A program made the position numbers and the translations under genes. DNA of 64,000 nucleotides, taken from contig CP158635.1 in the NCBI GenBank assembly GCA_050273025.1, forward strand, positions 20,398,001 to 20,462,000. The letters run 5' to 3'. Shown here in pieces: positions 12,141 through 59,227 of the stretch; position 1 is the first letter of the stretch, and each line of letters starts with the position of its first letter. Source of the stretch: Cenococcum geophilum (taxonomy: Eukaryota). Below the pieces are notes generated by a model. It searched no databases and had not been told where the DNA came from. It worked only from the letters and a program-made list of their open reading frames with translations.

Positions 12141-13352
12141 ACCCCAAAAGTCTCGCTAGGCTATATTACCTCAGCAAGCTCAGACCCTAGCCTATCTCGC
12201 TCCCAGACGATATTATTACGTGCCTACTATATCACGTATAGATTACATAAGCTTAGATGATTGTCTAGAGTCTATGCGAGGTTTTTTAGTAAACCGCGGG
12301 CGTATTTGTGTGTAATCCTTATATAAAATTACACGCTATACTAAATTTTAATTTATTAATTAACTACTAACGTAGTTCCCTAGTAAGCTGGCCACCCTAG
12401 CGAGCTGGCCACCTCATTATACGCGCGACGCGCTTTTGAACTTTTTTTTTTGAAATTATACACCGTTTTAGCTGCCCTAAAGGCGCTATGCCGGGTCTTC
12501 TATTTTACAGAGGTAAATCCTGGATAATTACCCGTCTTACCTACAGCAGTGATTCCGTAAGGCCCTCGTCCGCCTATCTACTACGTGCTGTAGGTATATG
12601 GCGCCTAGGAGAGAAGTAAATGTCTAAAATGTAAGGGAACTAGAAAAGAACGCTATTGTAATATAATTATAAAGACATACGCAAGTAGGGTAAGTTTCTG
12701 TACAAAGGAAATAATCGAGATTAAATAATTAAAAAGTAGTAAGTACCCAAATTACCTCCGTTTCGTACCGTATATTAAAGCTAGGCCTATTTTATAGGGC
12801 CTGGAGTTCTTACTTTAATACTGTCCGTCTTCCGCTAATATCGCGTATAATATATCTATCGCTAAGAGACTTAGTTACTTTAAGTCTGTTCCTGGCCTCC
12901 AGAAACTACCTTAGGGGGCCTATTTATACTATATATTGTGCTGCTTTCTTTACTAACTATGCTAGGTTTAAGATTAATTTATAGCTCTAAGGTTAGCTGT
13001 TATACGGCTAGACTGCTTTCCTTAGTTCTTTAAAGTTAGGGCATTTAATTAGGACATGTCGTCCTATCTATTCGTCCCCGCACGTATACCTTAAGTTAGG
13101 CATATGTTTAATCCTATAGAGGTAGCTTTTAAGGGCTACCTTACCTATATAGATCTGCGTAAGGGTAGCAGAGAAGGCCTTTAGTAGGCTACTATACACC
13201 CTTAGTCTCTGTTTTAAAATCTTTAGTGCTAATTTATATAGTTCTCTCCCAGTCTTTCTATTCTCCCATTTATTTGCCTAGTAAGCTTTTAGTCTTACTT
13301 TTGTTATTCTCTTTACTGCTAATAATAGGCTTTAAAGTAATGAGAAGGTAGG

Positions 13353-13776
13353 TATTACGGACGCTTTAAGTACAATATTACGACTACTTGGAGAGAAGTT
13401 AAAGGAAGCTAGTTAGTTAATATAAATACGGTCTAGGATAGAGCCGATAGAGCTATGTAACGAGGAATGGTAACTGAGGTCACGTAATATAATCTGTATA
13501 ATTTATAGGATCTATATAATCCGTAATAGAGTAGATAGAGCACACGTATATTATATATAAGAAGGATTTTATAGGAGTACGGTTGTATATTTAAGGACTC
13601 TTAATCCTTACCTAGATAGTTCCTTCCTTATAGTAATTCTCAAAATACAATTAGAGTTAATCTATTAGGTAACTACTCTACTAGTTATTATTATATTGTT
13701 AACTTTAATTTATATTACCTATACACCTAGCCTAATAACAAGCCTATTGTAGTTCTTGCTATAAGGTTCCGTTATA
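13353..13776 (+). repeat. 5' LTR of Gypsy 13353-21319
   Basis: Direct repeat of 20896-21319. Confidence 0.95.
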
Positions 13777-16700
13777 TAATTACTACCTAGTTATGGTATT
13801 AAATATAAAAAGTTAAATAACATGCCACCAAAAGCACTAGCTATAACGCTATTAACGGCAGCAACTACTTTAAGATTAGGTAATAACACTAGTATAGCAA
13901 ACACTAACTTATAGCAACCTATAACGGTTAAATAACTATAAAAGATAGTTAACTAGCTAACAGAAAATAATGCGATATTAAAAAATAGGATTAACGGGAT
14001 AGGAGCAGTGAAGATTAAGTTACTATTAATTAAAAGGTACTTAGGAGAAAGATTAAAACTTAAAGGATTCCTTATATAAATACACTTTAAGGTTACGCAA
14101 GAAGGAGCTATGCTGCTAACACCTATAGATTAAATAGCATATACGGGACTATTCCTATTAGAAAGGGCACTTAAGTAGTTTAAGCCTTATTTTATAGAGA
14201 TATAAGTAAATAGTATAACAACCACTAATTAAGAAGTACAGTTTATATTTATAAGCTAGAAAGGGTTTATAGAGCAACTTATATAGATATTTAGAGACCT
14301 AAAGGCGGTAACTATAGCAGAAAGAAAACTTTAAGACATTATATAATAAACCTTAGCAATTAAGTATATAACGCAGTTCCAGACATTAGTAATATAAGTT
14401 AAGTGGAATAATAAGGCGCTTATAGCATAGTATAAGCAGGGACTTAAGGCTAAAGTCTAGGACGTAATTATCTTAATAGAAGATGCGGACACCCTAAGGG
14501 AACTAATAGATTAAGTAATTAAGATTAATAATTAGATCTACTAAAGGGAATAGGCTAAAAGAGGTTAAGATAAAGTTCTATAGTTATATAAGGCGTAGAG
14601 TACGCAATAACTAAAGCTAAGTTAAAAACTATAGTATGGCGCAGAGCTAATAGACCTAAGTAGTACTAAAGAATCTAAGAAATAGAATAAGAAATTATAG
14701 AAACCTAGAGGATAAGGATTAAGTAATTAAAGGTCTAAGAAGCAGAGGCTAAATTAGGGATTTTAGTAGCAAAAGACGTTTAGGCGGACTCTATAATAAG
14801 AAAAATGGTTTAAAAAAAAAGCTTATATAAATTATAGAAAATAAGGTTATTATATTAAAGACTATAGAAGTGGTTAGAGTTACTATATAGTAAAAGGAAT
14901 AAGACTAGTAGACGATATATATATATAGAGGGACAATAATATGCTGCGAGGAATAAAGGAATGTTTAATTAAAAGTTTTACGTTTTATTATAACAATATA
15001 TACCAAATTTATAAGGACGCTAAGTATGGCGTAAGCTATTAGCTATAAGAGCTATATTTAGCGGAATATAAAAGAACTAATAAACTAGTTCGCAGATTGG
15101 ACATTAAGGACGATAACTTCGACGTAGGCGAAACATTTTATAACAATAAGGCAATAAGGGCCGCTTACTAGGAGCGAGTAGACCTTAGAGATATTATACT
15201 AGAGGTAGAGAATAATTCCACTATAGAATAGGGAACATTAGTAGGGATTAAGACCCCACTAAATACGATATCTATTGCTTTGCGAGACGTAAGAGAAGTA
15301 AAATAGCGAGCTACTTCGGCACTTAATAAAGGCAAAAGGCTAAAGACTTAAGATTCTTAAGAAGAGATAAGAGGTGACTAAGATTCTTAAGACAAGATAA
15401 GGCAAGCTTAAGAACCTATAATAGACGATAACCGACAGAGTAGAGTAGTAGCTTAGTTTAAAAATATACAAATAAGCTTAGGATAGAGTTTCCTACAGGC
15501 ATATAACTCTTAAGAAGAGATAAGTAAGATTTACGACTTTTAAGACGAGATAAGAATACCTAAGCCTAGTTAGACTAAGGTAGGAGCTAAACTTAAGTTA
15601 GAAGCGAGCTTGGGATTAAAGAATTTAAGGGACTAAGAATTTGGAGAACGGATAAGGGTACCTATAAGTAAGAGGTAAGGAGCTTCTTTATAGATTAAAG
15701 AATCTATAGTATAAACAGTAGTTAGACTAGGAGATAGATATATAAACCTAGAAGACTTACTAGGAGAACACAGTGTTTAGCCTAAAGATTAAAGAATTAA
15801 TACCAAGATTAAGAAGTAAGGAGACTTTAAGGATCTATCTATAAGACGTAAACTAAAAGAAACTATAGAAGAGTTTAGGTAAAGAATTATCGTATAATAA
15901 GAACAGAAACTAGATAAAAGATTTAGCATATTAGGACGTATAAGGGATAGGGTATTAGTATAAAGAATTACTAATAGGCCTAGGGCAGGTATACTAAGAG
16001 CTAAGTAGCTTACTAAACTAGAATAAGAAGAGGATCTAAGAATTCCTATTAGGTTTAAGGAATAATATACTAAAGGCTGTTACAATATAGTAATAAGAAG
16101 ATACTTTCTTACGGACAAGCTATATATACTTAAAGGGCTGTACTAAAAGTGGTATAGACAACAATATAATAATAAGTAAGAAGATTTCTATATATGGTTA
16201 GATAAAAAAGTTATCTAAGACTACCTAATTACAGAAAAGGCCATAAGTTATATTAAAGGAGCCTTAATTATAATATTAAAAGATCTAGAGGAGTAATTAG
16301 AGGACTAGAGAAGCGAGAGGTAAATTATAGTACCTGCGAATAAAGTCGTAACGCTTAAATTAATATAAGAAAGATTTAAACTTAGGGACAAAAATAAACT
16401 AAGAGTTAACCTAAAACACTAAGTATATTATATGTTGGCATAGATTATATATATAGATAATATATATAATATATATAGAGTACTAAAAGATAAGAACCGA
16501 AAGTACCTAATAAGGATATATTAGTTATTAGACAAGGCGAAATATAGAAACGTTAAGTATATATATAGTTAGCACCTAATAAAAGTGCAAAACTAAGGGG
16601 ATTTAATACTTTAACTAGAAAGATTCCTTACGGAAGAATGCTTAGATAAACAATAGTAGTAGAAATGCCTAAAAAATACGTGTCTATAGTATATAGAAGA

Positions 16701-20895: not shown

Positions 20896-21319
20896 TATTA
20901 CGGACGCTTTAAGTACAATATTATAACTACTTAAAGAGGAGTTAGAGGAAGCTAGTTGGTTAATATAAATACGGTCTAAAATAGAGCCGATAGAGCTATG
21001 TAATAAGAAATGGTAACTAAGGTTATATAACCTAATCTATATAATCTATAGGATCTATATAATCCATAATAGAGTAAATAGAGCATATATATATTATATA
21101 TAAAAAGGATTTTATAGGAGTACGGTTGTGTATTTAAGGACCCTTAGTCCTTACCTAGATAGTTCCTTCCTTATAGTAATTCTCAGAATATAATTGGAGT
21201 TAATCTGTTGGGCAACTATTCCACTAGTTATTATTACATTATTGACTTTAATTTGTATTACCTATACACCTAAGCTAATAATAAGCCTATCGTAGTTCTT
21301 GCTACAAGGTTCCGTTACA
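20896..21319 (+). repeat. 3' LTR of Gypsy 13353-21319
   Basis: Direct repeat of 13353-13776, ending GTTACA. Confidence 0.95.
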
Positions 21320-24300
21320 GTAGGTGCTTTTAGTCCTATCTCTCCTTCTTCTCTTTACCCTATTACTATCTTCGCTAAGATATCCGCTTATTTGTTTCCG
21401 TTAATATCTACATATAACGGGACCTAGTATATTACTACCTATATATTTAGCATCTATGCAGCTTATAGTCTCTCGCGTACTTCGTGGACTAAGTACTAGC
21501 CTAAGTAGTTCCGTAGTTTAGCAACTGCTTATATTACTACTTAATTATCTATAAATATTATTAATCTTCTAATTATTAATAAGCGCTTAAGTGCTAGATT
21601 GAGAGCCAGCTATATCCCTTTTAGCTCTCCTGCGTATACTATACTAACTTAGTTCATTCCTATATAGTTAGCTGCCTTAGCTCCTAATTCCGGGATATAT
21701 ACTAAGGCTCCTACCTCTCCATTAATTTCGCTTCTGTTTATATATACTAGTACGTATTCTAAGTTATTCCTAGCGTTCTATACGATGTAGTTATACTCTA
21801 GCTTACCTACTTCTGTTCCTCTAGTAATGTAGATCTTTAGTAGTTTAGTTTATAGATAGATAATTTCTAGGCGGATTACTTCTATAGAAGGTGTCCCTTC
21901 TTTAAGGCGGAGTGCTACTGTGTTCTCTAATTTTTAAAGAGGGCTATACTATTTAAACTTTAATAGGGCGGATCTCTATAGTTATTAGATCTTATAGTAT
22001 AACAGTAAGCCCCTAATTTAATTTAGGGAAGACTTAACCGCCTAGTAAAGTAATATTTTAATCGGTAAAATATATATCTCTACTTCTAGTTCTGCTTTAG
22101 TCATGGTTCTAAAAGCTCCTATTATAAGGTAGAGTGCTCTATACTAAATTTATAATAACACTCTATAAACATTCTTTATTTTATTTATAAAACTATATCC
22201 TCCTTCTAGTATATATTAGTAGGAAGCTATATAGAGCATACGTGGCATAACTATGGCTGTATAGAGTTGACGTATATATTTGGTTATAATACCTTATATA
22301 GATCCTATAATACCTAAAAGATATACAAGTTAGCTTATAGATCTTTCCGCTATATAGTCTAAGTGCGCTTTCCCTATTAGCTTATCGTTTAATATAACGC
22401 TAAGGTATCTAGCTTTTGTTATTAGTTATATTATTTAAGTCCTTCTATCCTTTAGTGTGAGCACTAAAGAACGCTTACGTTCTTCTTTTGAAATCTTCTT
22501 CCTAGGTTGTATAAAGTAGATAAGTTTATATTTCTATAGTGCGAATACTAAGGCGTATTTATATGCCCACTTTTCTGCTCTTTTATGCAGCATTAATAAT
22601 ATCTTTATTGTCTCTTCCGTGTTTCTTCCATTAACTATTATACTCGTATTATTAATATACTCTATAACTAAGCCATGCCTTAGTCCGTCCTTATCTATAA
22701 TAACATTTAAGAGATCCGCGTTATAGAAAAGGTATAATATCGGCGATATTAGTAAGCCTTAAGGGATTCCTGTTAGTGTAGGGAATCTCTCTAATATTCC
22801 TTCCGGTAGTTTAATATATATAGATCTTCCTATAAGGAAGCTTTAGATCCATTTAACTATAGGTATAAGAATTCTTTATTTTTAGAGGCAGTAAATAAGC
22901 CTTTAGTATAATATATTATTAAATACTCTGCTTACATTAAGTATAAGTAAGCTTACTACGTCTTCCTCTCCTATCTGCTATGCTGCGTATATTTTCTCTA
23001 GGAGGAGATATATCGCGTATTCGCAACTAGCTACCGCTCTTCTGCCTATATAAGTACGCAGTAGGAGGCTATAGGCGTCCGCTATAAAGAGTATCTGCTT
23101 TATAAGCACTTTATCTATAACCTTACCTACCATATTTAGTAGGGCTATTAGTCTATATATCTTAGGGTCCTTAAAGCCTCCTTTCTTTGGTTTTCTTAGT
23201 GCTATAGTAATTAATCTTTAAAAATGTGTAGGGTAATACCCTACCGTAAGGCATTAGTTGAATAGTTGGGTTAATGGTTTTTTTAGTTTCTATATGGCCT
23301 TAAGGAGCATACGGCTTAGGAGTTGGTTTTTACCTAGTGCTTTATTGGGACTAGTTATCCTAATAGCTTTTTTTACCTCCTATGCTTTAATATCTAGGAC
23401 CTATAAAGGGTTTAGATATTAGTGGTTGTATAAGTCTTTTAGATCTGCAGGCAGTAGCGTTAGAAAGAAGGAGTCCTTAAGGGCTGCCGTCTTTCCTTCT
23501 ATAGTATGTTGTGGAGTATCTACTACGTCTCTAATATCCGGTATAAACATAGTTTTTATAATATTCCGTTTATAGGCCTAAGCGTATAGGGACCAGAGTC
23601 CCTTTATATCTTTAACCTTACTTACTCTATTTCTATGCTTTATTTTAGTTACTTTCCTAATAGCCTTATCCTTCTCTTATCTTGCTATTTGCAGTATAAT
23701 ATAGTTTTCTTTAGTTAGACAACTGTTAAAGTGCCTATATACGCGTCGTTCCGTCTTAATTACTTATATATATTTATCCGTCCATCCTAGTTTAGATCGC
23801 GGGCTAAGTTTAACTATTAGTATAGAGAGTTTCATGGCTTTAGTAAGGGTGTTTATAATTCTAGTAATTACTATATTAATTTGGTTCTGTAATAAAGCTA
23901 GGGGTACTTTTAAAAGATCTTAGAGTACGTTATAGAAGATTTCTTTATTTATCTTTTTGAAAAGTCACCTAGTTGGTTTCTCTTCTTATTTTAGTTAGAA
24001 TCTAAATACTATTTCTACTAGGAGGTGGTCGGAGCCCTTATTAAGCTCCTTATTAATTTCTATTTAAATTAGGTAGTCCGTTATATCTAAAGTAATAAAG
24101 CTAAGGTCGATTATTGAGGGGTTAATACCTACTCCCTTAGCTAGCCTTGTAATAAGCCCTGGCTTAAAGCCTAGCTTAAGCCTATTATTTTCTATTATTT
24201 TAATAAGATATTCCACTACTGTCCTATAGTTATACCTAGCTTTAGGTCCTCCCTATTTAGGGTAGTAAAGATTAAAGTCTTTTACGACTATAGTGCTGTG

Positions 24301-26766: not shown

Positions 26767-29700
26767 CTACCCCCCTTCTATAGAGGCGGAGCTCTAGTAA
26801 CGCTATAGTTACTATATATATATAAAAGGGATACTTAAGGTATAGAAAAGAAGAAAGGGGGGTATTGCTAAAGGCTTAAAACAACGTTATATAATAAGGC
26901 TTAGTATCTAAGAATTTAACTAATTAGATAACTTTAACCGCTAGTTAAAGTTCCTAGATATCTTAATAATATTCCGGTTATATAATCGCACTTTACCGCA
27001 ATCTAACGGCAATTTAACGGTAATTTACCCTTACATGGTAATATATTGTGGTGGTATAAATTAGACGTCGCCTACTATCTTAGCATTTTCCTATATTTAT
27101 AGAGCCTTCGGCTTCCTTCCTTCCCTCTATTATATACATATTACGACCTTACTAGTTACCGGAAATACACTCTTTTCTTTCTTTCTTACTTACTAACTAA
27201 CTAACTAACCGACCGACCGACTAATAGACTGATAGCACTGTGACTTTCCTACCTTAGAGAGGTCGTACCCTCCTACTATATAACGGTTTAACTCTATAAG
27301 GGCTTCTATAGAGGATTAGGTATAAAATCTCTGCTTAGGCCTAGTTTCTATAGGTTTATATAGTAAAAGTCGCTAATTAAATCCTTTATATTTTTAAAGT
27401 CTTCCTATAGTTACTATTCTAGCTAATTTATATCAAATCCTATATATATAGCTCTGTAATAAAGCCGTCGTCCTCTACCTTTACTAAAGTATTTAGAGTT
27501 AATAATTCGTTTAACGGTCCACTCCTTATAGTTTTTATCTTTATTCTTATCTCGGATTAGTACTAGTAGGGGTTTAGGCTATATCTACCCTAGTAGGGGG
27601 TTAGGCTAATAGAGGTATAGTAGCTATAGGTAAAATATAGGCTATATCCCATAGGTAGCTAGAGTAGGTAAAAGTTCTAGCTTATATATGGCTCCTCTAT
27701 TAATAACTTATTTAATTAAATAAGGGCCGAGGTTCTTATAATTAAGTAACTTTATAGGCCTCTACGTAGAGATATTATATATATTTAGCTATACCTAGTC
27801 GCTAACACGCATCTCTAGTAGTGGCGTTCTATAACGGTTAGTAAAGTAGGCCTACTTTACTTAAGCCTAGGCTATTTCTCCCTTATAGTAGTTAAATGGA
27901 TTTTTTTATACAGTCTATATACTAGTTAGTAAGTAGCATCTTAAGGCGTTTTCTATATAGTAGTTTCTTATTAATAGGTTCTAGTAGCTCTATACTAGAT
28001 TAGGGGTAATAACCCTTATTCGCGAAAAACGGAGTAAGTCCTATAGTAGTTAAGACGTAGTTATTCACTGCTAATTTACTTAGTAGGAGGTAATCTACCT
28101 AGTTATCTTAACTATAGGCGACTACCTATTATAGGTACGCTTTTATACTAGCATTAGCGTTTTCTAATTACTTAGCAGTTTTATAGTAAAAGGATATAGA
28201 TATCTTAATAGAGATGCTAAGGCGTTAGCAGATTCGTCTCTATATATTAGAGTTAAATTATATACCTTAGTCGGACGTAATTAAGTTAGGTAACCTATAT
28301 AGTTAGTAAATTTTATAAAGAAAAGCGTTAGTAACGTCGCTAACGGTTACGCCTTTAGTTAGGATATAGTGGCGCTCTTTTATAAGTTGGTATATTATTA
28401 TAAGGATGTTCTTATAGGTACGGCCATATTATTTACAGGGTAGTAGGTTAATAATAAAATCTATAGTAATATCTGCCTATTATTATATAGATACTAGTAA
28501 AGGGTATAGTAGTCCTTAGTACTTTATATTAAAGGCCTTAGCGCGCTTATAACTGTAGTAGGCGCCTATAAAGTATTTAACTAAGTCTATTATTTTTGGC
28601 TAGAAGTAGTATTGGCTAAGAAGCTTATAGGTTCCTCTTTTACCTAGGTGGACGCTTAATCGGAGGTTGTAGGCTATTTAGATTAGTTGCTGTTATAGAT
28701 TTTCTAAGTTAGGGATAAATAGGCGGCCTTTATAATAGAGCCTATTCTCTTTTACTTTTAAGGCTGCTATATTAATCTGGCCTAAGCTTTAGAGGTTAAT
28801 AGGTAGCGTATAAGCGCTAGCGGTCTTTACGGTAATAAGTTAATATAGTAATAAGTTAATAGGGGTGTTATATGCCGTAGTAATAAGCTTATTAATTTTA
28901 GGAGATAACTTTAATTCTATGGTATAAAGCTAAGGTATAGTTAGCTCTATTATAGGTAGTATACCTAGGGCTAAATTTTATACTTTTAAGATCGTTTATT
29001 ATTAGAACTAATTATAGGGGTTATTTTTAGACTAAGGAAGGTCTTACGAGCGGCGTATTAGGCTATTAGGTTTAGTACCTTATACTCTTAGTTTATATAT
29101 AATTTTAAAGTTAAAACTAGAGAGGAACTTATTCTAATATACTTGGTGTTAGTTTAGCTACTTTATAGTTATAAAGTACTTAAGGTTATAATAGTCTATA
29201 AGGACTTTAGTTAGCTAGTTAAGCTCTACTAAAAAGAGTTTTAGTTAGAATTCTTTAAACGCTTGTATAATTATAAGGAGTTCTTTATTATAGATCTTAT
29301 AGTTATACTCTTATAGTATAAGCTTAGATAAGTAGAATGCGACTAGGTAAAGAAGGCCGTTATTACCTATTTAGGAAAGGACGCCTATATTAACGTAGTC
29401 TAAGGAGTTAGTTTTAAGATAAAGTTATTATCCTAGTATAAAGTAAGCTAAGATAGGTGCTTTAATAAAGGCATTTTTAAGGTCTTAGAACGCCTTCTCG
29501 CATTTAGGCGTCTAGGTAAAGCGTAGGTGCGTTTTTCTTCCTTTTATAAAAAGGCCCTCTATTCGCATTATTGCTATAAATAGTGCTACTATACTTAAGA
29601 AGTTATATATAAATTTCTAATAGAAGTTAGCAAAACTAAGGAAGGCTTATATATCCTTAATGCAGTTAGGGGCTTGTAATTTAGTAATTATATATACCTT

Positions 29701-43050: not shown

Positions 43051-45396
43051 TCTTTACCTATTAAATAAACGGACGATTAACCCTAGTTAATGAACGTACC
43101 TAACCAATAACGTCTTAGCCACCTAGACAAGATAGCTACCCACCCAAGACAGTGCACGGGCCTCCTACAAAAATTAAAATCAAAATAACATTAAAATCAA
43201 CCCCAAAATTAACCCCAAAATTAACCCAAATTAACCCTATTATATAAATACACTATAATCCATTAGTAGTTCCTTCCAACCCTTCTTTATAAAGGTAATA
43301 ACCTCCTATAATACAGCCTTCCTTTCCTTTACCCTCTTCTCTTTCTGCTCCTTTTAAAGCTTTTCATCGTTCTTCTTTTATACCTCTGCTACTAATAAAA
43401 CTCGTGCCTTCCTATAGGCGGCTTTTATCTTACTATAACGCTCCTTCTTCTATCTTTTAAGAAGCTCCTAATTTATTCGCTTAAGGATTATATTATTAGC
43501 TACCGTACTTAATATAAACTGCTAAATATTATATATAGCTTAAGAATGTAGGGGTGATGCGCTTTGTAAGAGCTTTTTTTTTATTTTTTTTATTTTTTTT
43601 TATATCTATTGTATTGTACTACGTACAATACTGCGCATGCAGCCTCTGGGCTATGGTGCTATAGTTCTATATACATAAATCCTTTCTAGGCAGCTTAATA
43701 TATACTAGTAGCTATATCCTAGTAGTTTATAAACCTCTAGACTAGAGGTTTACCGCTCCCTAGTAAAATACTAGGTTATAACAACTATTAGGTAATATTA
43801 AAACAGTAGAAAAACGGTAAAAGAAACGGTAAATAAATCCCAACGCCTGCCCCTGTACATTTTATAGTTTATTTCTGTCCTTTTGCTTACTACTATCTAT
43901 TTACTAGAAGTCTAGTAGGAGTTACCTCCTTCTAAAGCTTCTTCTTCCATTAGCCACTCTCTAGTAGCTATTTTTGTCTTACTTAGAAATAGGAAAAGCG
44001 CCCTTCTTCCTTTCTCTATACAAAAGAGCTTCTCTAGGGAGAGAGAAGAGTTTAGTTGTCTTTGCATTTCTTTTCTCTCTTCCCTGTATAGTCTGCATTC
44101 TAGTAATAGGTGCTTAGGAGTCTGTATAGCTCTACAGCCCTTAAAGCATTTACCTTCTTTATCCTTCCCTATTGTCTTAGAGAAGGATTTAAAGAAGCCT
44201 TTTCCTAGTTTTAGTTAATAGAAAGCTAATTATAACCTTTTAGGATATTTATCCTTAGGGGCTTTAAGAGATAAGGAGTAGTTTCCTCTAGAGATCCTAG
44301 TATAGTGTTTTCCTTTATTTTTTTTCTGTTGCCAGCTGCTTTTCCACTGTCCTAGTATTTTTTCTCTTGCTGCTCTCCCTATATAGGCTAGGGATGTATA
44401 AGAAGATTGTATTTTTCTTCTAGAGAGGCCCTTTTTAGCTAGCTTATCTGCTATTTCGTTTCCGTAGATTCCTAGGTGGCTAGGAACCCAATAGAAGCAG
44501 GTAGTTATATATTAGCTAATAATACAGTAGAGTTCTACATGCCTACTTATCTAGGCCTCTACCCCAGTTTTCTAGTGCTTTAGTCCTAGTCTATAAGCAG
44601 TTGGCTGCCACCACCCATAACACGGGGAATCTCACCAGTTCTTTCGGATATCTTATAACGGGTTATTAGCCCAAGTACTAGTCCGCCCCCCAGCGGTCTA
44701 TATAAGAGTTTCCTCCTAGAGTTAGTACGCTTTCGCACGGCTTAGGAGCCTTCCATAGCCTCTAGTTTTACGCCTCTCTTCATTGTTTCCGCCGGCACGG
44801 GCATAAGCTACCATTTGCAGGGGTCGCAACTCCCATCTTACGCGCCTACTGGCGTAATCCTACGAGGGCGTCGTGGCTGCATCCTGTAATATAGCTAGGT
44901 ACACCTTCTACGGTCGAGTCCCAGCCAAAGCCTCTCCCGCCTGAGTAACTCCTGTTTGCTCCTTAAGCGTACCTCACCAGCGTACTGCCCTAGCGAGCAG
45001 TCCTGTCTATTGGTACACCGACACGCGCATCCGTTCTCTCGAGCCACGTAGTAGTCTCTCCGGCCAGGACGTGATCCTGCCTGCCTACCAGGTGCACTAG
45101 GGGTCAGAGCCCAGCTAAGGGGTGAGGTCCCTAGAGCCAGCAGTGGCTACTACGTACTACGCCTCGCGGGTGGTTCCCGTTTCGCGTTGCCTATAAGAGT
45201 CTCCTCATGATAGGCCGACCGTGTCTTGCAGGAGGGGGCCATAGACCAGGTCCCGTGCCAGGCAACCTACTCCCCCCTCTCCTACTAACCAAGCTTGTGT
45301 TCCCCCCTTTTATAAGCTGGCCTGTGTCTCTAACTGTCGAGACCTCGTCCGACTGGCCTGTGTTTCCCCTACAGCCTCCCCCATATGTATATGCAT

Positions 45397-45426
45397 GTGC
45401 GTATGCGTATGCGTATGCGTATGCGT
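45397..45426. repeat. (GCGTAT)n microsatellite, ~5 copies
   Basis: Seen directly in the sequence. Confidence 0.9.
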
Positions 45427-46134
45427 TAGGTTGCGTGCACCACGCCTATTAAGACCCTCCTTTGAGTCGCCTTTTAACGCCATGGGGCCGTCGAAGCTGG
45501 CCTGTGTTTCCGCTGCCTAGAGCTTTGCCCGTGTTTCCACCTCGTTAAGCCGTCTGGTCGCCGTCGCGTCGCGTCGCTGTCGCGTCGCTGTCGCGTCTGT
45601 CGTCCAGGTCGCGCGCACCACGCCTATTAAGACCCTCTTCTAAGTCACCTGGGTGTACTGGATACCAGATAGGCCCTCGTAGAGGGGCCTTAACGAGTTC
45701 TCTAGGCAGGGCCTTAACAAGTTCTTCGCGGTGGCCTTGGGGCCTTAACAAGTTTCGTACGAGGTATCTGCGACGCGTTAACCTTAACAAGTTCTTATAA
45801 AAGGAGGTTCCCTACGCCCTCGCCGCGTCCTGCGATCTCAGAGGTAGTGCAAGCCCAAGGGTGTCCTGTTGTACGACTAGGGCGCGTCCACGTCGACTGG
45901 CTGTGATAAGGCCAGTTTCGGGCCTGGCTACGAGCCAGGTAGTCGTATATCGGGTGGTTTTCGTATCCCAGTTTCCCTTAATAGGCCTCCCTAGGTGGTA
46001 GAGCGAGAGCCCCAAGCGGAGGCAGTAGGGCTCCCGGTGTTGTTGAGGACGATGCGGACGCGTCGCAGGCTCAACACCACAGAACCGCAACGCCAGCGCG
46101 CTGCACGCGCTGCGGCGGCTCTCTACCATCGCCT

Positions 46135-46219
46135 CTGCACTTGGCCATCGTAAGGAATTGATTCCTGATGATGTTTCCACCCGCGGCGACGTGGACGCGT
46201 GCAGTAGGGCTTCGCGGGC
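46135..46219 (-). ncRNA. HDV-like self-cleaving ribozyme
   Basis: Minus-strand RNA: P1 GCCCGCG / J1/2 AAGCCCUA / P2 CUGCAC / P3 GCG / L3 UCCACGU / P3' CGC / P1' CGCGGGU / P1.1 GG / AAA / P4 CAUC...AGGAAU-CA-AUUCCU...GAUG / J4/2 GCCAA / P2' GUGCAG. P1 (with G1-U wobble), P2, P3 and P1.1 all pair fully. The candidate catalytic C is at 46144. Confidence 0.85.
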
Positions 46220-46856
46220 TTGTAAGAGCTGACTAAATATCTTAGTAAGTCTCTCCTCTACGGAAGGAGATATGGGTATATTAAATTTATAGCCATTCTT
46301 ATCTATAAAGCTTATATAGGAAGGAGTTATTAGCCGAATCTTTTCTAAAACAATTAAAGGATTAAATAGTAGAAGGCCAGTTGCCCGCTATATGCTTACT
46401 ATATTAGTTAGTAATATAGCTTCGTCTTATACAGCTTAGTAATACTTAAGGAACTTAGGCTTAGTAATATTAACAGCTCTATAGAAGGCGAAGTTTTAAA
46501 GGCGCTTTTAATAGGCTTTTAATAAGGGGCTAAATATACTAATATTAAGGGGTTAAAGTAGGTGTGTCGAATAAGGTAGTAAATAGAGAGGGATAATCTT
46601 ATAAGCCTTGCAATACTTAATAAACTGCATTAATATATGGCTCTCGTGTCCATTAAGAATTAATAAGCAATAGATTCCTTAAAGGCGTGGCTCTATATAT
46701 TAGTTAAAGTGTTTTAACCAATTAACTACAATATCTGAATTTATCCAGCCCAAATCGCTTACTTAAATTACTATCTTGCGATTAAGTCTAGGTGATATCT
46801 AAAATCGTTACATTTACTTCCCCTAAAAGATAAGGTAGGGAGGTAATCAATATTAG

Positions 46857-47492
46857 CCTCCTAATTGACCTCCTAGTTAACCTCCTAATTAACCTCCTAA
46901 TTAACCTTCTAATTAACCTCCTAATTAACCTCCTGGTTAACCTCCTAGTTGACCTCCTAGTTGACCTCCTAATTGACCTCCTAGTTGACCTCCTGGTTGA
47001 CCTCCTAGTTAACCTCCTAGTTAACCTCTTAATTGACCTCCTAATTGACCTCCTAGTTAACCTCCTAATTAACCTCCTAGTTGACCTCCTAGTTGACCTC
47101 CTAGTTGACCTCCTAATTGACCTCCTAGTTGACCTCCTGGTTGACCTCCTAGTTAACCTCCTAGTTAACCTCTTAATTGACCTCCTAATTGACCTCCTAG
47201 TTAACCTCCTAATTAACCTCCTAGTTGACCTCCTAATTGACCTCTTAATTAACCTCCTAATTAACCTTCTAATTAACCTCCTAATTAACCTCCTGGTTAA
47301 CCTCCTAGTTGACCTCCTAGTTGACCTCCTAATTGACCTCCTAGTTGACCTCCTGGTTGACCTCCTAGTTAACCTCCTAGTTAACCTCTTAATTGACCTC
47401 CTAATTGACCTCCTAGTTAACCTCCTAATTAACCTCCTAGTTGACCTCCTAATTGACCTCTTAATTAACCTCCTAATTAACCTCCTAATTAA
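46857..47492. repeat. 12-bp minisatellite CCTCCT(A/G)(A/G)TT(G/A)A, 53 units
   Basis: 636 bp = 53 x 12, with 144-bp and 360-bp higher-order duplications. Confidence 0.95.
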
Positions 47493-49020: not shown

Positions 49021-50816
49021 CCTTCTCTATATTACCTAACCTATTTTCTCCTAATACTCCTATACCTTTCCTATAATATTTTTTAGATTCTATAGTAGTT
49101 CCTAAGTAGTCTTATTATAGCCTATCTACTTAACCTTATACTATATTTTGTTATTAATATCCTTATAACTAATAATCTTTAAAACTTACTATTTATCTTC
49201 TTCTTATCCTCTATATATATCTACTTTATAAATTAGTGGTTTAATATTCCCGTATACTAGTTCCAGTATTACGATATACTATATAGAGTAGATCTTTATT
49301 TTAGCTAGTAGGTTTAACTTAAATATAACCGGTAAAATTCTTTATATAATTTTAAAAGGTCCTAGCCCAATATAGTTTAACTTCTTACTTAGTTATTAAC
49401 TCTTAAAATTTTTCTATAGTAGCTATACTTTATCCCCCTCCTTAAGATCTAGTCCCTTAGATCTCTTAGTATTATAGTACTATTTTATTCTTTCTTATAC
49501 CTTTTTTACTAATTCTATAAGGTCTATATAAAGATTTATTAATATCTTTATCCTTTCTTTAGCTATGCTACTTGTTTTCTTTACTTATTATAGTAATAAT
49601 AATTTTTTTAGCTTATATCCGTAATTTACCTTAAATAGTAATATACCTATTCCTTTTTATAGTATTATATTATATATAAACTATATAACTAGTAATAACA
49701 ATACCTAATTATTCTATACGTAATTAATATAATATCTTAGATACTATTCTAGCGTCTAATTTAATCTTTTTAGTTATCCGTGTCGGGAATGAGGCAATTT
49801 GCCGTCACGTACGGCAAACTGCCGTCACGTGATGGCAAGTTGCCATCACGTGTCGCCGCGGCACTAGCGTGGCGAGGAGCCTTAAGCTCCTCGCCCTTCC
49901 TCATTCCAATCAATAAGCTTTTCCATCACTGTAACCTACTCGAGTAGTCGTTATTGGTGAGTCACCCTGTGTGACCAACACTGATCAGTGGTTGAATACA
50001 TAGTTAACCACAGAGCAGCTAGGTTTTCGAACAGAAGAGACAGTCTTGTGCAGGGGTGCTATATGCGCTCATATGGAATGGATCCCGGCGATATTGTGCT
50101 ACCTTAGACTTGCGGAAAACTAGTAATAGAAGTATTACTGAGTACTAGGAGATACCAAGTTGCGTCTATTATGTAGAATAACCACGTTTACGAAGATTTG
50201 GTTGAGTACTTTAGGTCAGAAGTGTTACTGAACCTATGGTCCCAAGTTAACGTCCGAAACGCGTTAAACTACCTCAATTGCCTACCTATTAATTGACGGC
50301 ACCTTACGAGAACATACAAACAAATCGGCAGTTCCGCTTCGACAACTACCTTAATACCCTCCGTGTGCCTTCGCAGATTTAGTTATTATGGCGTTAACCT
50401 ACCCGAAGAAGTATAAGAAAGATATTGACCTAAAGATATAGAATAAAGACATTGACCTTGCAAATGCTAAACCATAAGACCTAAACGGATTCTTATTATA
50501 CCGCATGGTATACTATAAAGATAGTAAATACGACGATACCGCGCTATAGGAATGTATAAGGGAGGACTTTATTAGATGGATAAAGGAAATATGGGCTCCC
50601 GCGAATAAGGATATCGTACGAGACTTCCGTGACTTTTTATGGGAGTATAGAGTATTCGTCCCTATGGACGGGGGCGTTATTAGAGACAATATTTAGGAGC
50701 ATATTATTAATGTAAAAGAAAAGCACAAATGGACTCCATAAGAGATTAAGATTAAGCACCAAATACGCGCTATAAAGAAGTTTAACTCTTGAGGGAATTC
50801 TAATAACGGACAGCTA

Positions 50817-57048: not shown

Positions 57049-59227
57049 ACCCATGACTCCTCAGCAAGAAAGCACCACGTGCTAAGAGGCAAATTTTGGG
57101 ACAGCGAGACTTATATTGCAATGGCAATAGTAAGTAAGGAGGATCCATATTTGTTACGATAGTCAAGCAGTATTTGTATATAGAGGGCAACCACAAAAGA
57201 AGAGTTGCCAGTGTCGGGAATGAGGCAAGTTGCCATCACGTGTCGCCGCGGCACTAGCGTGGCGAGGAGCCTTAAGCTCCTCGCCCTTCCTCATTCCAAT
57301 CAAAAAGCTTTATCAACCAACATCACTGTAACCTACTCGAGTAGTCGTTATTGGTGAGTCACCCTGTGTGACCAACAATCCGTCCGTCTATAAATAATAT
57401 ATAGTAAAAGTTACTACTCTAACTCCTTATTCCGCTAAAAATACCTCTTAAAATGCTACTATAAATCTTAGATCTCTATCCAATATAACCTTGCTTAGTG
57501 CTCTATGTTTTATAAATACTTCTTTAATATAGATTTTAACGACATCTTTTGCTAAGATTTCTTCTATACATGCTATAAAGTAGCCCTATTTAGTTAACTT
57601 ATTTACTATTACTAAAATTATATTATACTTTTATCCAGTAATAGGATTTCTTAACTTTAGTAACTTAATAATAAAGTCCTATAATATAACCTCCCATAGT
57701 TTCTTTAGTATTTTAATAGGTTATAGCCCTCCGTATAGCTTATACCTTATTAATTTTTTTTTTAATAATCTAAATACTTTTTTATTACTTTTCTAACTAT
57801 GCCTTAAATTCCGTTAATAATATATTCTTTTTATAGTCTTAATACTAAGCCTATTACTCCATTATGTTCTTAAGTTATTCCCTTATAGAAATCTTCTATA
57901 AAATGCTCTGCTATGCTCTTTAGGATATACTTTACTTTTTAGTTTTTATATATATCTATCTATAGATCTTTTAGCTATACTTTTAAAATTCTTTATACCT
58001 AAAAGCTCTCTAGTGTCTCGTAGACTCTTTTTAGTTTATTATCTTCTTAAGTTGCTACTAGCTTAGGGTAGTTATATCTAATTAATCTATCCTTATCTCT
58101 ACATAGTATCACTCCTAATAGTTTCTTATTATTTTATAATTTAGCCCTTTTACTTAGCGTATCTGCCCTTATATTTTTAGTGCCCTTAGTATACTAAATT
58201 TTAAAATAGTATTCTATAAGTATCTCTACCTATCTAACCTATCTTTAATTAAGTTCTTTTGTTATTAGGAACCCCGTTAGGTTTTTATAATCTATTTTAA
58301 CTATAAACAGTTTTTCTGCGCCTTATAAGAATGCTTTTTATTTCTTAAGTACTACAACTATACCTAACAACTCTTTATTATAGACGTTATAGTTTAATTC
58401 TAATAGTATTATTTTTTTAACTATAGTACGCCACTAGGTACTAATGCGTTCCCATACTTCTATAATAAATATACTCCTAGTATAAAGTCTAATACGTTCG
58501 TTTCTATAACCGTATCTAGTCCTAGTTAATAGATTTTAAGAATTAGTTCTTAGGTAAACAGTTCTTTAAGTTCCTTAAATAGCTCTTTTTATTTATCTCC
58601 CTATACCTATAGTTCCTCTTTCTTTATAAGCCTAGTAAATGGTTTAATACTCTTTAACTATTATACTATAAACCTTCTATAGTAGTTGCAAACCCCTAAG
58701 AATAACCTTAACTGCGTTATATTCTCTAGTTTCTGCCAACTTACTATAGCTTTAATTTTCTTTAGGTCTATACTAATATAACCTATTTTAATAATAAATC
58801 TAATAAAATCGGTCTTCCTTATAAAGAACTTATATTTCTTAATTGCTACTAGCATCTATTCTTCTTATAGTCTCTTTAAGACCCATTTAACGTGTTCTCT
58901 ATGCTCTTCCTTAGTTATTAAGTAGATAATAATATTGTTAAGGTATGCCATAACAATCTTATTAAGATATTCTCCTAATATACTATTTATTCTCTTCTAA
59001 AACATTACTAATATATTTATTAATCTAAATTGTATAACTAATAGCTTATATAGTCCTTCTCTTAACCTAAAGGCTGCTTTTTATTTATCGCCTTCCTTAA
59101 TTCTAATTTAATGGTACGCCTATCTTAGATCTATCTTTATAAAGATTTACGCATTACCTATTTAATCCTAAATTTTACTAATTAAGGGTAAAGGATACCT
59201 ATCTTTCCGAGTAATACTATTTAACTA

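Follow-up and report, generated by a model that had tools for sequence, protein, structure and literature searches.

A stretch of 64,000 nucleotides (nt) of Cenococcum geophilum (contig CP158635.1, positions 20,398,001 to 20,462,000), here called the window and numbered from its first letter, contains on the minus strand a retro-insertion of 2,645 nt (46219..43575), in which a constant non-coding leader is joined to the 3′ end of a long interspersed nuclear element (LINE). We consider it likely that this element is a chimeric retrocopy of the type known as MINE in Magnaporthe, and that a leader RNA with a ribozyme-made 5′ end was joined to the LINE sequence by a template switch of the reverse transcriptase (RT). 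In the window and its sister copies, a complete 5′ RNA and a constant acceptor 3′ end are combined with a variable donor position, and target-site duplications (TSDs) surround the whole. This is the pattern expected for template-switch chimeras.

The element is a complete insertion with a leader and a LINE tail

The following features were delineated, in the order of the plus strand:

43564..43574, no strand: left TSD copy, 11 bp, TTGTAAGAGCT, identical to 46220-46230; empty-site contigs carry a single copy.
43575..43601, minus strand: A-rich tail, A9 T A8 T A8, by direct reading.
43602..43911, minus strand: 3′ untranslated region (UTR) of LINE family F2, 310 nt, lying 3′ of the stop codon of the second open reading frame (ORF2) and aligning with the F2 tails of loci L006, L042 and L058.
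43912..44497, minus strand: C-terminal remnant of ORF2 with about 25 RNase H residues and a CCHC region (translation, phmmer, tblastn, Pfam).
44496..44498, minus strand: junction of leader and LINE; G at 44498 belongs to the leader and CT at 44497-44496 are the first LINE letters (LINE copies running through the site, loose contig ends).
44498..46219, minus strand: constant non-coding leader, 1,722 nt, 57% G+C, with internal short tandem repeats, ending in ...AACTACCTG.
46131..46219, minus strand: motif resembling the hepatitis delta virus (HDV) ribozyme, nt 1-89 of the element (descriptor match, pairing in 95 distinct copies).
46220..46230, no strand: right TSD copy, 11 bp, TTGTAAGAGCT, 11/11 identical to the left copy.

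An empty site, either paralogous or allelic, was found in one contig of DNA run X1 and in record 10 of run X15. In these sequences 43555 is joined straight to 46219/46221 and the whole element is absent. The empty-site contigs provide independent support for the insertion, and they bear out a previous sequence-only reading of this DNA, which had taken the TSD and the A-rich tail as signs of target-primed insertion. The base composition of the element is uneven: its first 1.7 kb contain 57% G+C and its last kilobase 36%, the surroundings being at 32-33%. The DNA around the element shows a strong dinucleotide signature of the type left by repeat-induced point mutation (RIP). ARAGORN detected 0 tRNA genes in the element, and a 3-kb Rfam scan gave no match of the 5S or tRNA type at E≤10. 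The element is thus without the head of a short interspersed nuclear element (SINE) transcribed by RNA polymerase III (tRNA, 5S or 7SL), and the previous statement that there is no tRNA or 5S head holds.

The ORF2 remnant is a single minus-strand frame with 3 in-frame stops and a terminal stop at 43912-43914. It reads ...FYWVPSHLGIYGNEIADKLAKKG..., continues into a CCHC-type cysteine/histidine region, and represents the last ~190 codons of ORF2. Pfam recognised only the last 25 positions of RNase_H, in a match that falls short of its cut-off (E 8e-4). A phmmer search of 1.84 billion representatives yielded 2284 matches at E≤1e-3, the long ones being proteins of 1200-1400 amino acids (aa) that aligned at their C-termini. 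When the 1410-aa LINE ORF2 homologue P0004 (APE 125-247, RT 642-858, RNase H 1117-1242) was used in tblastn, only its residues 1219-1406 could be placed on the element, at window positions 44496..43948. Neither this search with full P0004 nor Pfam found an RT or an endonuclease in the element. These results agree with the sequence-only reading, according to which RT and endonuclease are absent and a partial RNase H, the CCHC region and the 3′ UTR are all that remains of the LINE. The name Tad1 for the partner LINE is the label of that reading; domain content alone was compared here, with APE, RT and RNase H in P0004, and the end of RNase H and the CCHC region kept in the window. The read depth at the last 120 nt of the 3′ UTR was about 10 times that of the rest of the element.

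The leader has constant ends in sister copies

Between 26 and 61% of the sampled words of the region were present in sequencing runs (two organism labels, root and soil metagenomes, and 'fungus metagenome' RNA libraries). Contigs with at least 90% identity over 3.65 kb numbered 8964 in X1 and 4087 in X6, the differences being dominated by transitions, and the summed depth over leader and tail was 10-50 times that of the flanks. As the reads are 90-99% alike, they come from sister copies. Individual copies were located by scanning metagenome contigs with a 23-nt ribozyme core that contained two N and was otherwise exact. At least 121 stretches were obtained, 5 of which were GC-rich chance matches, so that at least 116 family loci were recognised; the counts below are those among the matches listed. 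Copy counts refer to read contigs plus metagenome contigs, LINE coordinates are approximate, and single bases are blurred by RIP mutations.

The 5′ end of the leader is the same almost everywhere. 111 of the 116 listed loci start with the same GCCCGCGAAGCCC (at most 2 mismatches) and with the same G1; the remaining 5 comprise two loci truncated where their contigs stop, two with other sequence in place of the first 5-7 nt, and one that carries many mutations. The upstream flanks of at least 60 nt are distinct in 105 of 109 cases. More than 100 independent insertions thus have their 5′ end exactly at the predicted cleavage site, and no other observation argues as strongly for an RNA template that starts at G1. 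TSDs of 9-15 bp were identified around the whole chimera in 10 further loci, with total lengths from 1,888 to 3,749 nt.

The 3′ end of the leader is equally constant. In other long copies, BLAST alignments to the leader run from nt 1 to about nt 1706-1730 and then stop, and leader lengths range from 1.4 to 1.85 kb. The last leader letters, ...ATATAACTACCT (...ACCT), are identical in 49 loci. Among 48 copies the following base is G in 28, A in 19 and, in one doubtful case, C; RIP of a TpG would be expected to yield this A. In the window, the alignment to 48 other copies, the tblastn start at 44496 and the loose contig ends place the junction at 44498/44497. The loose ends are found at 44497 in 6 contigs of X1 and 7 contigs of X6, which continue into the canonical LINE sequence ...KNISIN.... 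The sequence-only reading had put the junction near 44590, which must be corrected. Its description of the leader as GC-rich and non-coding stands; its length estimate of ~1.5 kb falls short of the 1,722 nt found.

What follows the constant end differs from copy to copy: the LINE part begins in the ORF1 zinc-knuckle, the RT, the RNase H or the CCHC region, or comprises the 3′ UTR only. It measures from ~220 nt to more than 5 kb, and there is no fixed shared 3′ tail as in a SINE. Two LINE families serve as partners. With F1, 35 copies show 31 distinct junctions at relative coordinates 0 to 5169 of ~5540; with F2, the partner in the window, 10 copies (the window included) show 10 distinct junctions. 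Altogether 41 distinct junctions were seen among the 45 copies placed on F1 or F2, and 3 copies were not placed. The junction of the window occurs in 0 of the 48 other copies. Junctions are shared by only 4 pairs (L001/L032, L017/L020, L019/L079, L065/L070), the upstream flanks of which differ. F1 tails are (TAA)n-like repeats (L001, L007, L032, L038, L052) and F2 tails are poly(A), both kinds occurring behind the same leader.

Closer examination of the 33 distinct junctions for which a LINE copy runs through the site revealed a bias in the first LINE letters. The LINE part starts with CC at 14 of 33 junctions when the best reference is used, compared with a background of 4.8% (p ~1e-10), and at 18 of 33 with any of up to five references. 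Two pyrimidines are present at 26 of 33 junctions versus a background of 22%. Copies with a LINE part lacking CC carry the G alone. The bias fits a leader RNA that ends in ...ACCUGCC, the CC of which pairs with the nascent cDNA; it also fits a leader RNA that ends in ...ACCUG, with an RT that leaves the LINE template preferentially at CC. We favour the second of these readings because LINE parts without CC carry only G.

In L016, L040 and L076, one or two extra leader 3′ fragments are located between the full leader and the LINE part. They start at about nt 1320, 1351 or 1454, and each ends with the same ...ACCT, which would fit repeated switches onto the same acceptor end. In L011 the leader is followed by ~430 nt of unplaced sequence and then by the last ~140 nt of the F2 3′ UTR; a 12-bp duplication encloses the whole, which may be a tripartite chimera with a third RNA. 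The sequence after the leader in L033 and L027 could not be placed.

Fragments of F2 occur without a leader as well. Two more sequences resembling the F2 3′ end are present on the plus strand of the window (13349-14390 and 20898-21317), both with the same LINE start coordinate of ~1135 and no leader, and about a dozen metagenome loci contain fragments with this F2 start coordinate. They may represent a separate element that shares the last ~1 kb of F2. In addition, a decayed, RT-bearing LINE fragment lies at 22048-23886 on the minus strand (P0004 residues 321-968, 23% identity).

The first 89 nucleotides fit an HDV-like ribozyme

The predicted cut site of the ribozyme motif is located directly 5′ of G1, the first base of the element. 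P1 is formed by nt 1-7 with nt 35-41, and the G1-U41 wobble closes it at the cut site. P2 pairs nt 10-12 and 16-20 with nt 81-85 and 87-89, and P3 pairs nt 22-24 with nt 32-34, leaving UCCACGU as L3. C26 and C27 of L3 pair with G42 and G43, the GG after P1, to give P1.1, and P4 is an imperfect hairpin of nt 47-58 with nt 63-74. J4/2 reads GCCAAG and includes C76, the candidate catalytic residue, at 46144. P1, P1.1, P2, P3 and P4 therefore occur in the canonical order of the HDV-like topology. The descriptor was purpose-written and covers nt 1-84, P4 being read by eye.

Position 1 was the only place in the leader where this descriptor matched. Dinucleotide shuffling of the leader gave 3 matching starts in 300 shuffles (~6e-6 per position), and shuffling of the first 220 nt gave 4 matches in 1000. 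The descriptor also matches at 27580 (plus strand) and 36280 (minus strand) of the 64-kb window, which we take as chance. The proposed pairs were found in 94.2% of the cells across 95 distinct copies, versus 36-58% when the partners were slid. Of 95 distinct rows, 88 have G1-U41 at the pair 1-41 and 5 have A-U, and the common start of 111 of 116 copies at this base is indirect evidence for a cut there. C76 and P1.1 are conserved in 90% or more of 114 rows. Double changes were found in 11 pairs, compared with 4.8 ± 1.4 in shuffles. The ribozyme head proposed by the sequence-only reading is thus supported as a motif, and the fit suggests that the RNA would cleave itself at G1.

Composition and expression of the leader

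The leader could not be maintained as a coding sequence. No conserved ORF was found in it (in 85 copies the ORF that follows the ATG at nt 91 has a median length of 32 aa), and there was no codon periodicity, variability by codon position being 0.118, 0.115 and 0.130. It contains the tandem repeats (TGCGTA)n and (GTCGC-rich)n at 45374-45433 and 45555-45600, and a 45-nt segment that occurs twice, 178 nt apart (45428-45472 and 45606-45650). This repeat region shows many length variants in reads and contigs, and miRNA-like Rfam matches with E-values of 0.002-0.2 are due to (TGCGTA)n.

The leader is represented in RNA. RNA-library contigs of it were found in X15, and in X24 the first mates over the leader lie on the plus strand at about 10:1. 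In most stranded libraries a first mate on the plus strand indicates minus-strand RNA. The X24 reads are thus probably sense RNA of the leader.

The translation of the last ~100 nt of the leader (44500-44607, minus strand) faintly resembles the part of RNase H that precedes FYWVPSH (RL.L...TG..E), and the phmmer alignments ran into it (query residue 36). This similarity is probably an over-extension of the alignment; it could be due to chance, or be a trace of an older, LINE-derived leader end.

A proposed template-switch origin and its alternatives

The observations can be combined in the following scheme. The LINE RT would start target-primed reverse transcription on an F2 RNA and copy the 3′ UTR together with the terminal ~190 codons of ORF2. 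It would then switch to the 3′ end of a separate 1.7-kb leader RNA, which the constant leader end suggests to be a free RNA ending in ...ACCUG(CC), and copy it to its extreme 5′ end, whereupon the whole chimera would integrate between the 11-bp duplications. That template switching is the joining step is argued by analogy with known chimeras. The 5′ end of the leader RNA would be produced by the ribozyme in its first 89 nt, through a cut just 5′ of G1, so that a read-through transcript of any copy could regenerate the exact 5′ terminus with no need of its own promoter there. The leader, which lacks a LINE-type tail, would spread solely as a template-switch acceptor and with two LINE families. 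With less assurance, and leaning slightly towards doubt, we suggest that the leader is a distinct retro-parasite, namely a ribozyme-processed non-coding RNA that has no tail for recognition by a LINE, multiplies solely as acceptor of RT jumps and caps broken or complete cDNAs of more than one LINE family, the chimeras being its source genes and the WEIRD RNA of Magnaporthe, for which no gene was ever found, being of the same kind.

Several results weigh against this interpretation, and the first group concerns the ribozyme. Rfam returned 0 matches to a ribozyme at gathering score and none at E≤10 in the 3-kb scan, and a scan of 121 nt gave drz-agam-2-2 only, on the correct strand and not significant (8.5 bits, E 2.7, cut-off 38). 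Divergent HDV-like ribozymes are known to escape these Rfam models. Nested folding of nt 1-92 was no better than that of shuffles (z -0.29); this is to be expected because a double pseudoknot is beyond nested folding, but it lends the motif no support. Covariation is thin: P4 holds 9 of the 11 double-changed pairs, and the change seen most often, from C-G to U-A in 19 sequences, is of the RIP type. The search pattern dictated columns 21-43, which limits the reading of covariation, and we rate these data as compatible with the structure and not as proof of it. No pile-up of RNA 5′ ends was seen at 46219 in the runs aligned to this region. The second group concerns the samples. The selection by an exact core favours intact cores, and most of the loci come from three related metagenomes. 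No contig was found that bridges 44498 with the window's own junction. Lastly, there was no solo leader among the 49 leader ends, and none of three candidates accounts for the origin of the leader 3′ end. Arrays of leaders placed head to tail, with the 3′ end made by the ribozyme of the following unit, gave 0 true cases and 3 fuzzy chance matches. A tRNA-like end with an added CCA, which would have accounted for G plus CC, was dropped, as ARAGORN found nothing and copies with a LINE part lacking CC have the G only. Mimicry of a LINE 3′ end gave a local score of 21, compared with 16.3 ± 2.2 and a maximum of 26 in shuffles. The consensus fold of the leader 3′ end shows 0 covarying pairs; it consists of a single-stranded tail and one hairpin-in-stem that is conserved.

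The lack of a significant Rfam match and the weak covariation would also be understood if transcription started at G1 and set the 5′ end, the HDV-like fold being inactive or coincidental and the rest of the chimera model being kept. This we consider unlikely, since the full descriptor matches exactly at nt 1 despite the low expectation per position, and the C at the catalytic position and P1.1 are conserved in the proportion given above. Moreover, in each of the more than 100 copies, which lie at unrelated sites, transcription would have to begin at this one base independently of the DNA upstream.

The leader might also be the LINE's own ribozyme-bearing 5′ UTR, with a different internal stretch lost in each copy, either by an RT jump or after insertion. 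This was one of the origins entertained in the sequence-only reading. HDV-like ribozymes are indeed known at the 5′ ends of LINEs (R2, RTE and L1Tc; PMC3185411), the leader and the ORF2 tail have similar summed read depths, and the leader of L030 abuts the extreme 5′ end of F1, as it would in a full-length progenitor. However, all 4 of the 4 further F1 5′ ends found in locus flanks are preceded by unrelated DNA and have no leader. These ends coincide within ~10 nt (...ACTTTTGGAGCTCTTGCTGC...), and two of them run 2.7-3.7 kb into the LINE. The leader 3′-end subtypes, moreover, are each combined with both LINE families (F1/F2 partners: A 12/4, B 20/1, C 2/5), and a left breakpoint at the same base in 49 copies is not predicted by deletion. 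TSDs also flank the short forms, which shows that the loss was not post-insertional. We therefore regard an internally deleted LINE as a poor explanation, slightly less probable still than a transcription start at G1. The sequence-only reading had proposed that a junction unique to this copy would mean a post-insertion deletion. The junction is indeed unique, but with TSDs around the whole chimera in the window and 10 loci, its uniqueness reflects de novo formation of the chimera.

The leader-less F1 5′ ends, the subtypes on both families and the TSDs around the whole likewise speak against the three alternatives that remain. A fixed SINE-like family, in which ribozyme, leader and one LINE tail move as a unit, could account for the four junction-sharing pairs with different flanks, and some chimeras have probably been recopied as units. 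For the family as a whole it is contradicted by the 41 distinct junctions in 45 placed copies and by the unique junction of the window, and is very improbable. Accordingly, of the earlier proposal of a LINE parasite, the non-autonomous, LINE-dependent and ribozyme-headed nature and the absence of a polymerase III head are retained, and the family with a fixed junction is not. Spliced retrocopies (SpIRE-like), with the leader as 5′ exon and cryptic acceptors in the LINE RNA, are just as improbable. A single donor would give a constant left and a variable right boundary, but AG is present just upstream of the LINE part at only 8 of 33 junctions, even when two offsets and up to five references are allowed. 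The junctions cluster 10-30 nt apart instead of reusing sites, and the leader would have to belong to the LINE transcript, against which the F1 ends and the mixing of subtypes argue. Site-specific insertion of 5′-truncated LINEs at the end of existing leader repeats would place a constant upstream sequence beside variable 5′ truncations, but it is hardly credible, being contradicted by the DNA after the A-tail, which repeats the DNA upstream of G1 and not the leader (window and 10 loci), and by the empty site without leader and without tail.

Other features of the window

A 12-nt tandem repeat array with at least 52 copies, C-rich on the plus strand, is located at 46708-47400, ~480 nt from the 5′ side of the element. 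Two GC-rich sequences at 49834-49980 and 57224-57377 are 99-100% identical and lie 7.4 kb apart in RIP-decayed DNA.

Comparison with known systems

HDV-like ribozymes are found at the 5′ ends of R2, RTE and Baggins LINEs, where they release the 5′ end from a co-transcript. The motif described here would have the same fold and the same proposed role in 5′-end release, but those ribozymes belong to autonomous, coding LINEs, whereas here the motif heads a non-coding hitch-hiker RNA. In trypanosomes, L1Tc and NARTc share the Pr77 HDV-like ribozyme, which cleaves at +1 (PMC3185411). The likeness to L1Tc/NARTc (and ingi/RIME) lies in a LINE-dependent, non-autonomous element whose first nucleotides form an HDV-like ribozyme. 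NARTc, however, is of fixed structure, and its autonomous partner carries the ribozyme too, whereas in the present family the LINE 5′ ends are ribozyme-less and the LINE part varies. The 5′ module is thus not shared with an autonomous partner in the manner of NARTc and RIME, as full-length F1 starts with its own 5′ end. In the literature, with thin coverage of subscription journals, we found no report of an HDV-like ribozyme in a fungal retroelement and no paper that joins MINE-type chimeras with HDV-like ribozymes.

The U6/L1 chimeras and other mammalian LINE template-switch products consist of a complete small RNA at the 5′ side and a variably 5′-truncated LINE, with duplications around the whole. 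U6/L1 chimeras are named as LINE template-switch products in the paper on MINE (PMC2104539). The present element resembles them in its complete 5′ RNA, its variably truncated LINE and the duplications around the whole. It differs in that the acceptor is a 1.7-kb RNA with a predicted ribozyme-defined 5′ end and not a small nuclear RNA made by polymerase III, and in that the chimeras appear, by read depth, to be a large share of the LINE-tail copies.

The closest match in architecture is MINE of Magnaporthe grisea/oryzae, in which a 1.1-kb non-coding WEIRD RNA is fused to 230-5461 nt of the MGL LINE (Gogvadze et al. 2007, PMC2104539). According to that article, 31 MINE copies have 28 chimerisation sites, six site pairs being shared, a solo WEIRD was not found, and the consensus of the switch sites is GCC*A/U. 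The two systems have in common a full-length non-coding 5′ module of ~1-2 kb that always stops at the same 3′ end, LINE 3′ fragments that vary widely in length, duplications of 10-20 bp around the whole chimera, a few junctions seen in two copies, no solo module, and transcripts. Both also show a C-rich bias at the switch sites, GCC*A/U in MINE and G plus CC here. Indeed, the present family has 49 constant leader ends, 41 junctions and TSDs in the window (11 bp) and 10 loci (9-15 bp), and its autonomous LINE is without the 5′ module, as seen at 4 of 4 F1 5′ ends. The likeness is one of architecture. The differences are the HDV-like ribozyme head (the word 'ribozyme' occurs 0 times in PMC2104539) and a leader of 1.4-1.85 kb versus 1.1 kb, at least 111 copies versus 31, two LINE partner families, leader-leader concatemers and an AT-rich, RIP-marked genome.

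Compared with MINE as described, the ribozyme head, the scale and the two LINE partners are new. The family links two things that have been known separately, ribozyme-made 5′ ends of retroelements and template-switch chimeras of the MINE type, and would place an HDV-like ribozyme in a fungal retroelement. For annotation, it follows that such leaders are not to be taken for LINE 5′ UTRs, nor such copies for internally deleted LINEs. The more than 100 copies and 41 mapped junctions constitute a natural data set on the switch sites of LINE RTs, with a constant leader G followed by a preference for CC. If the ribozyme head is real, every chimera is a potential source of leader RNA, which would offer a testable answer to the missing solo 5′-RNA gene in MINE (PMC2104539).

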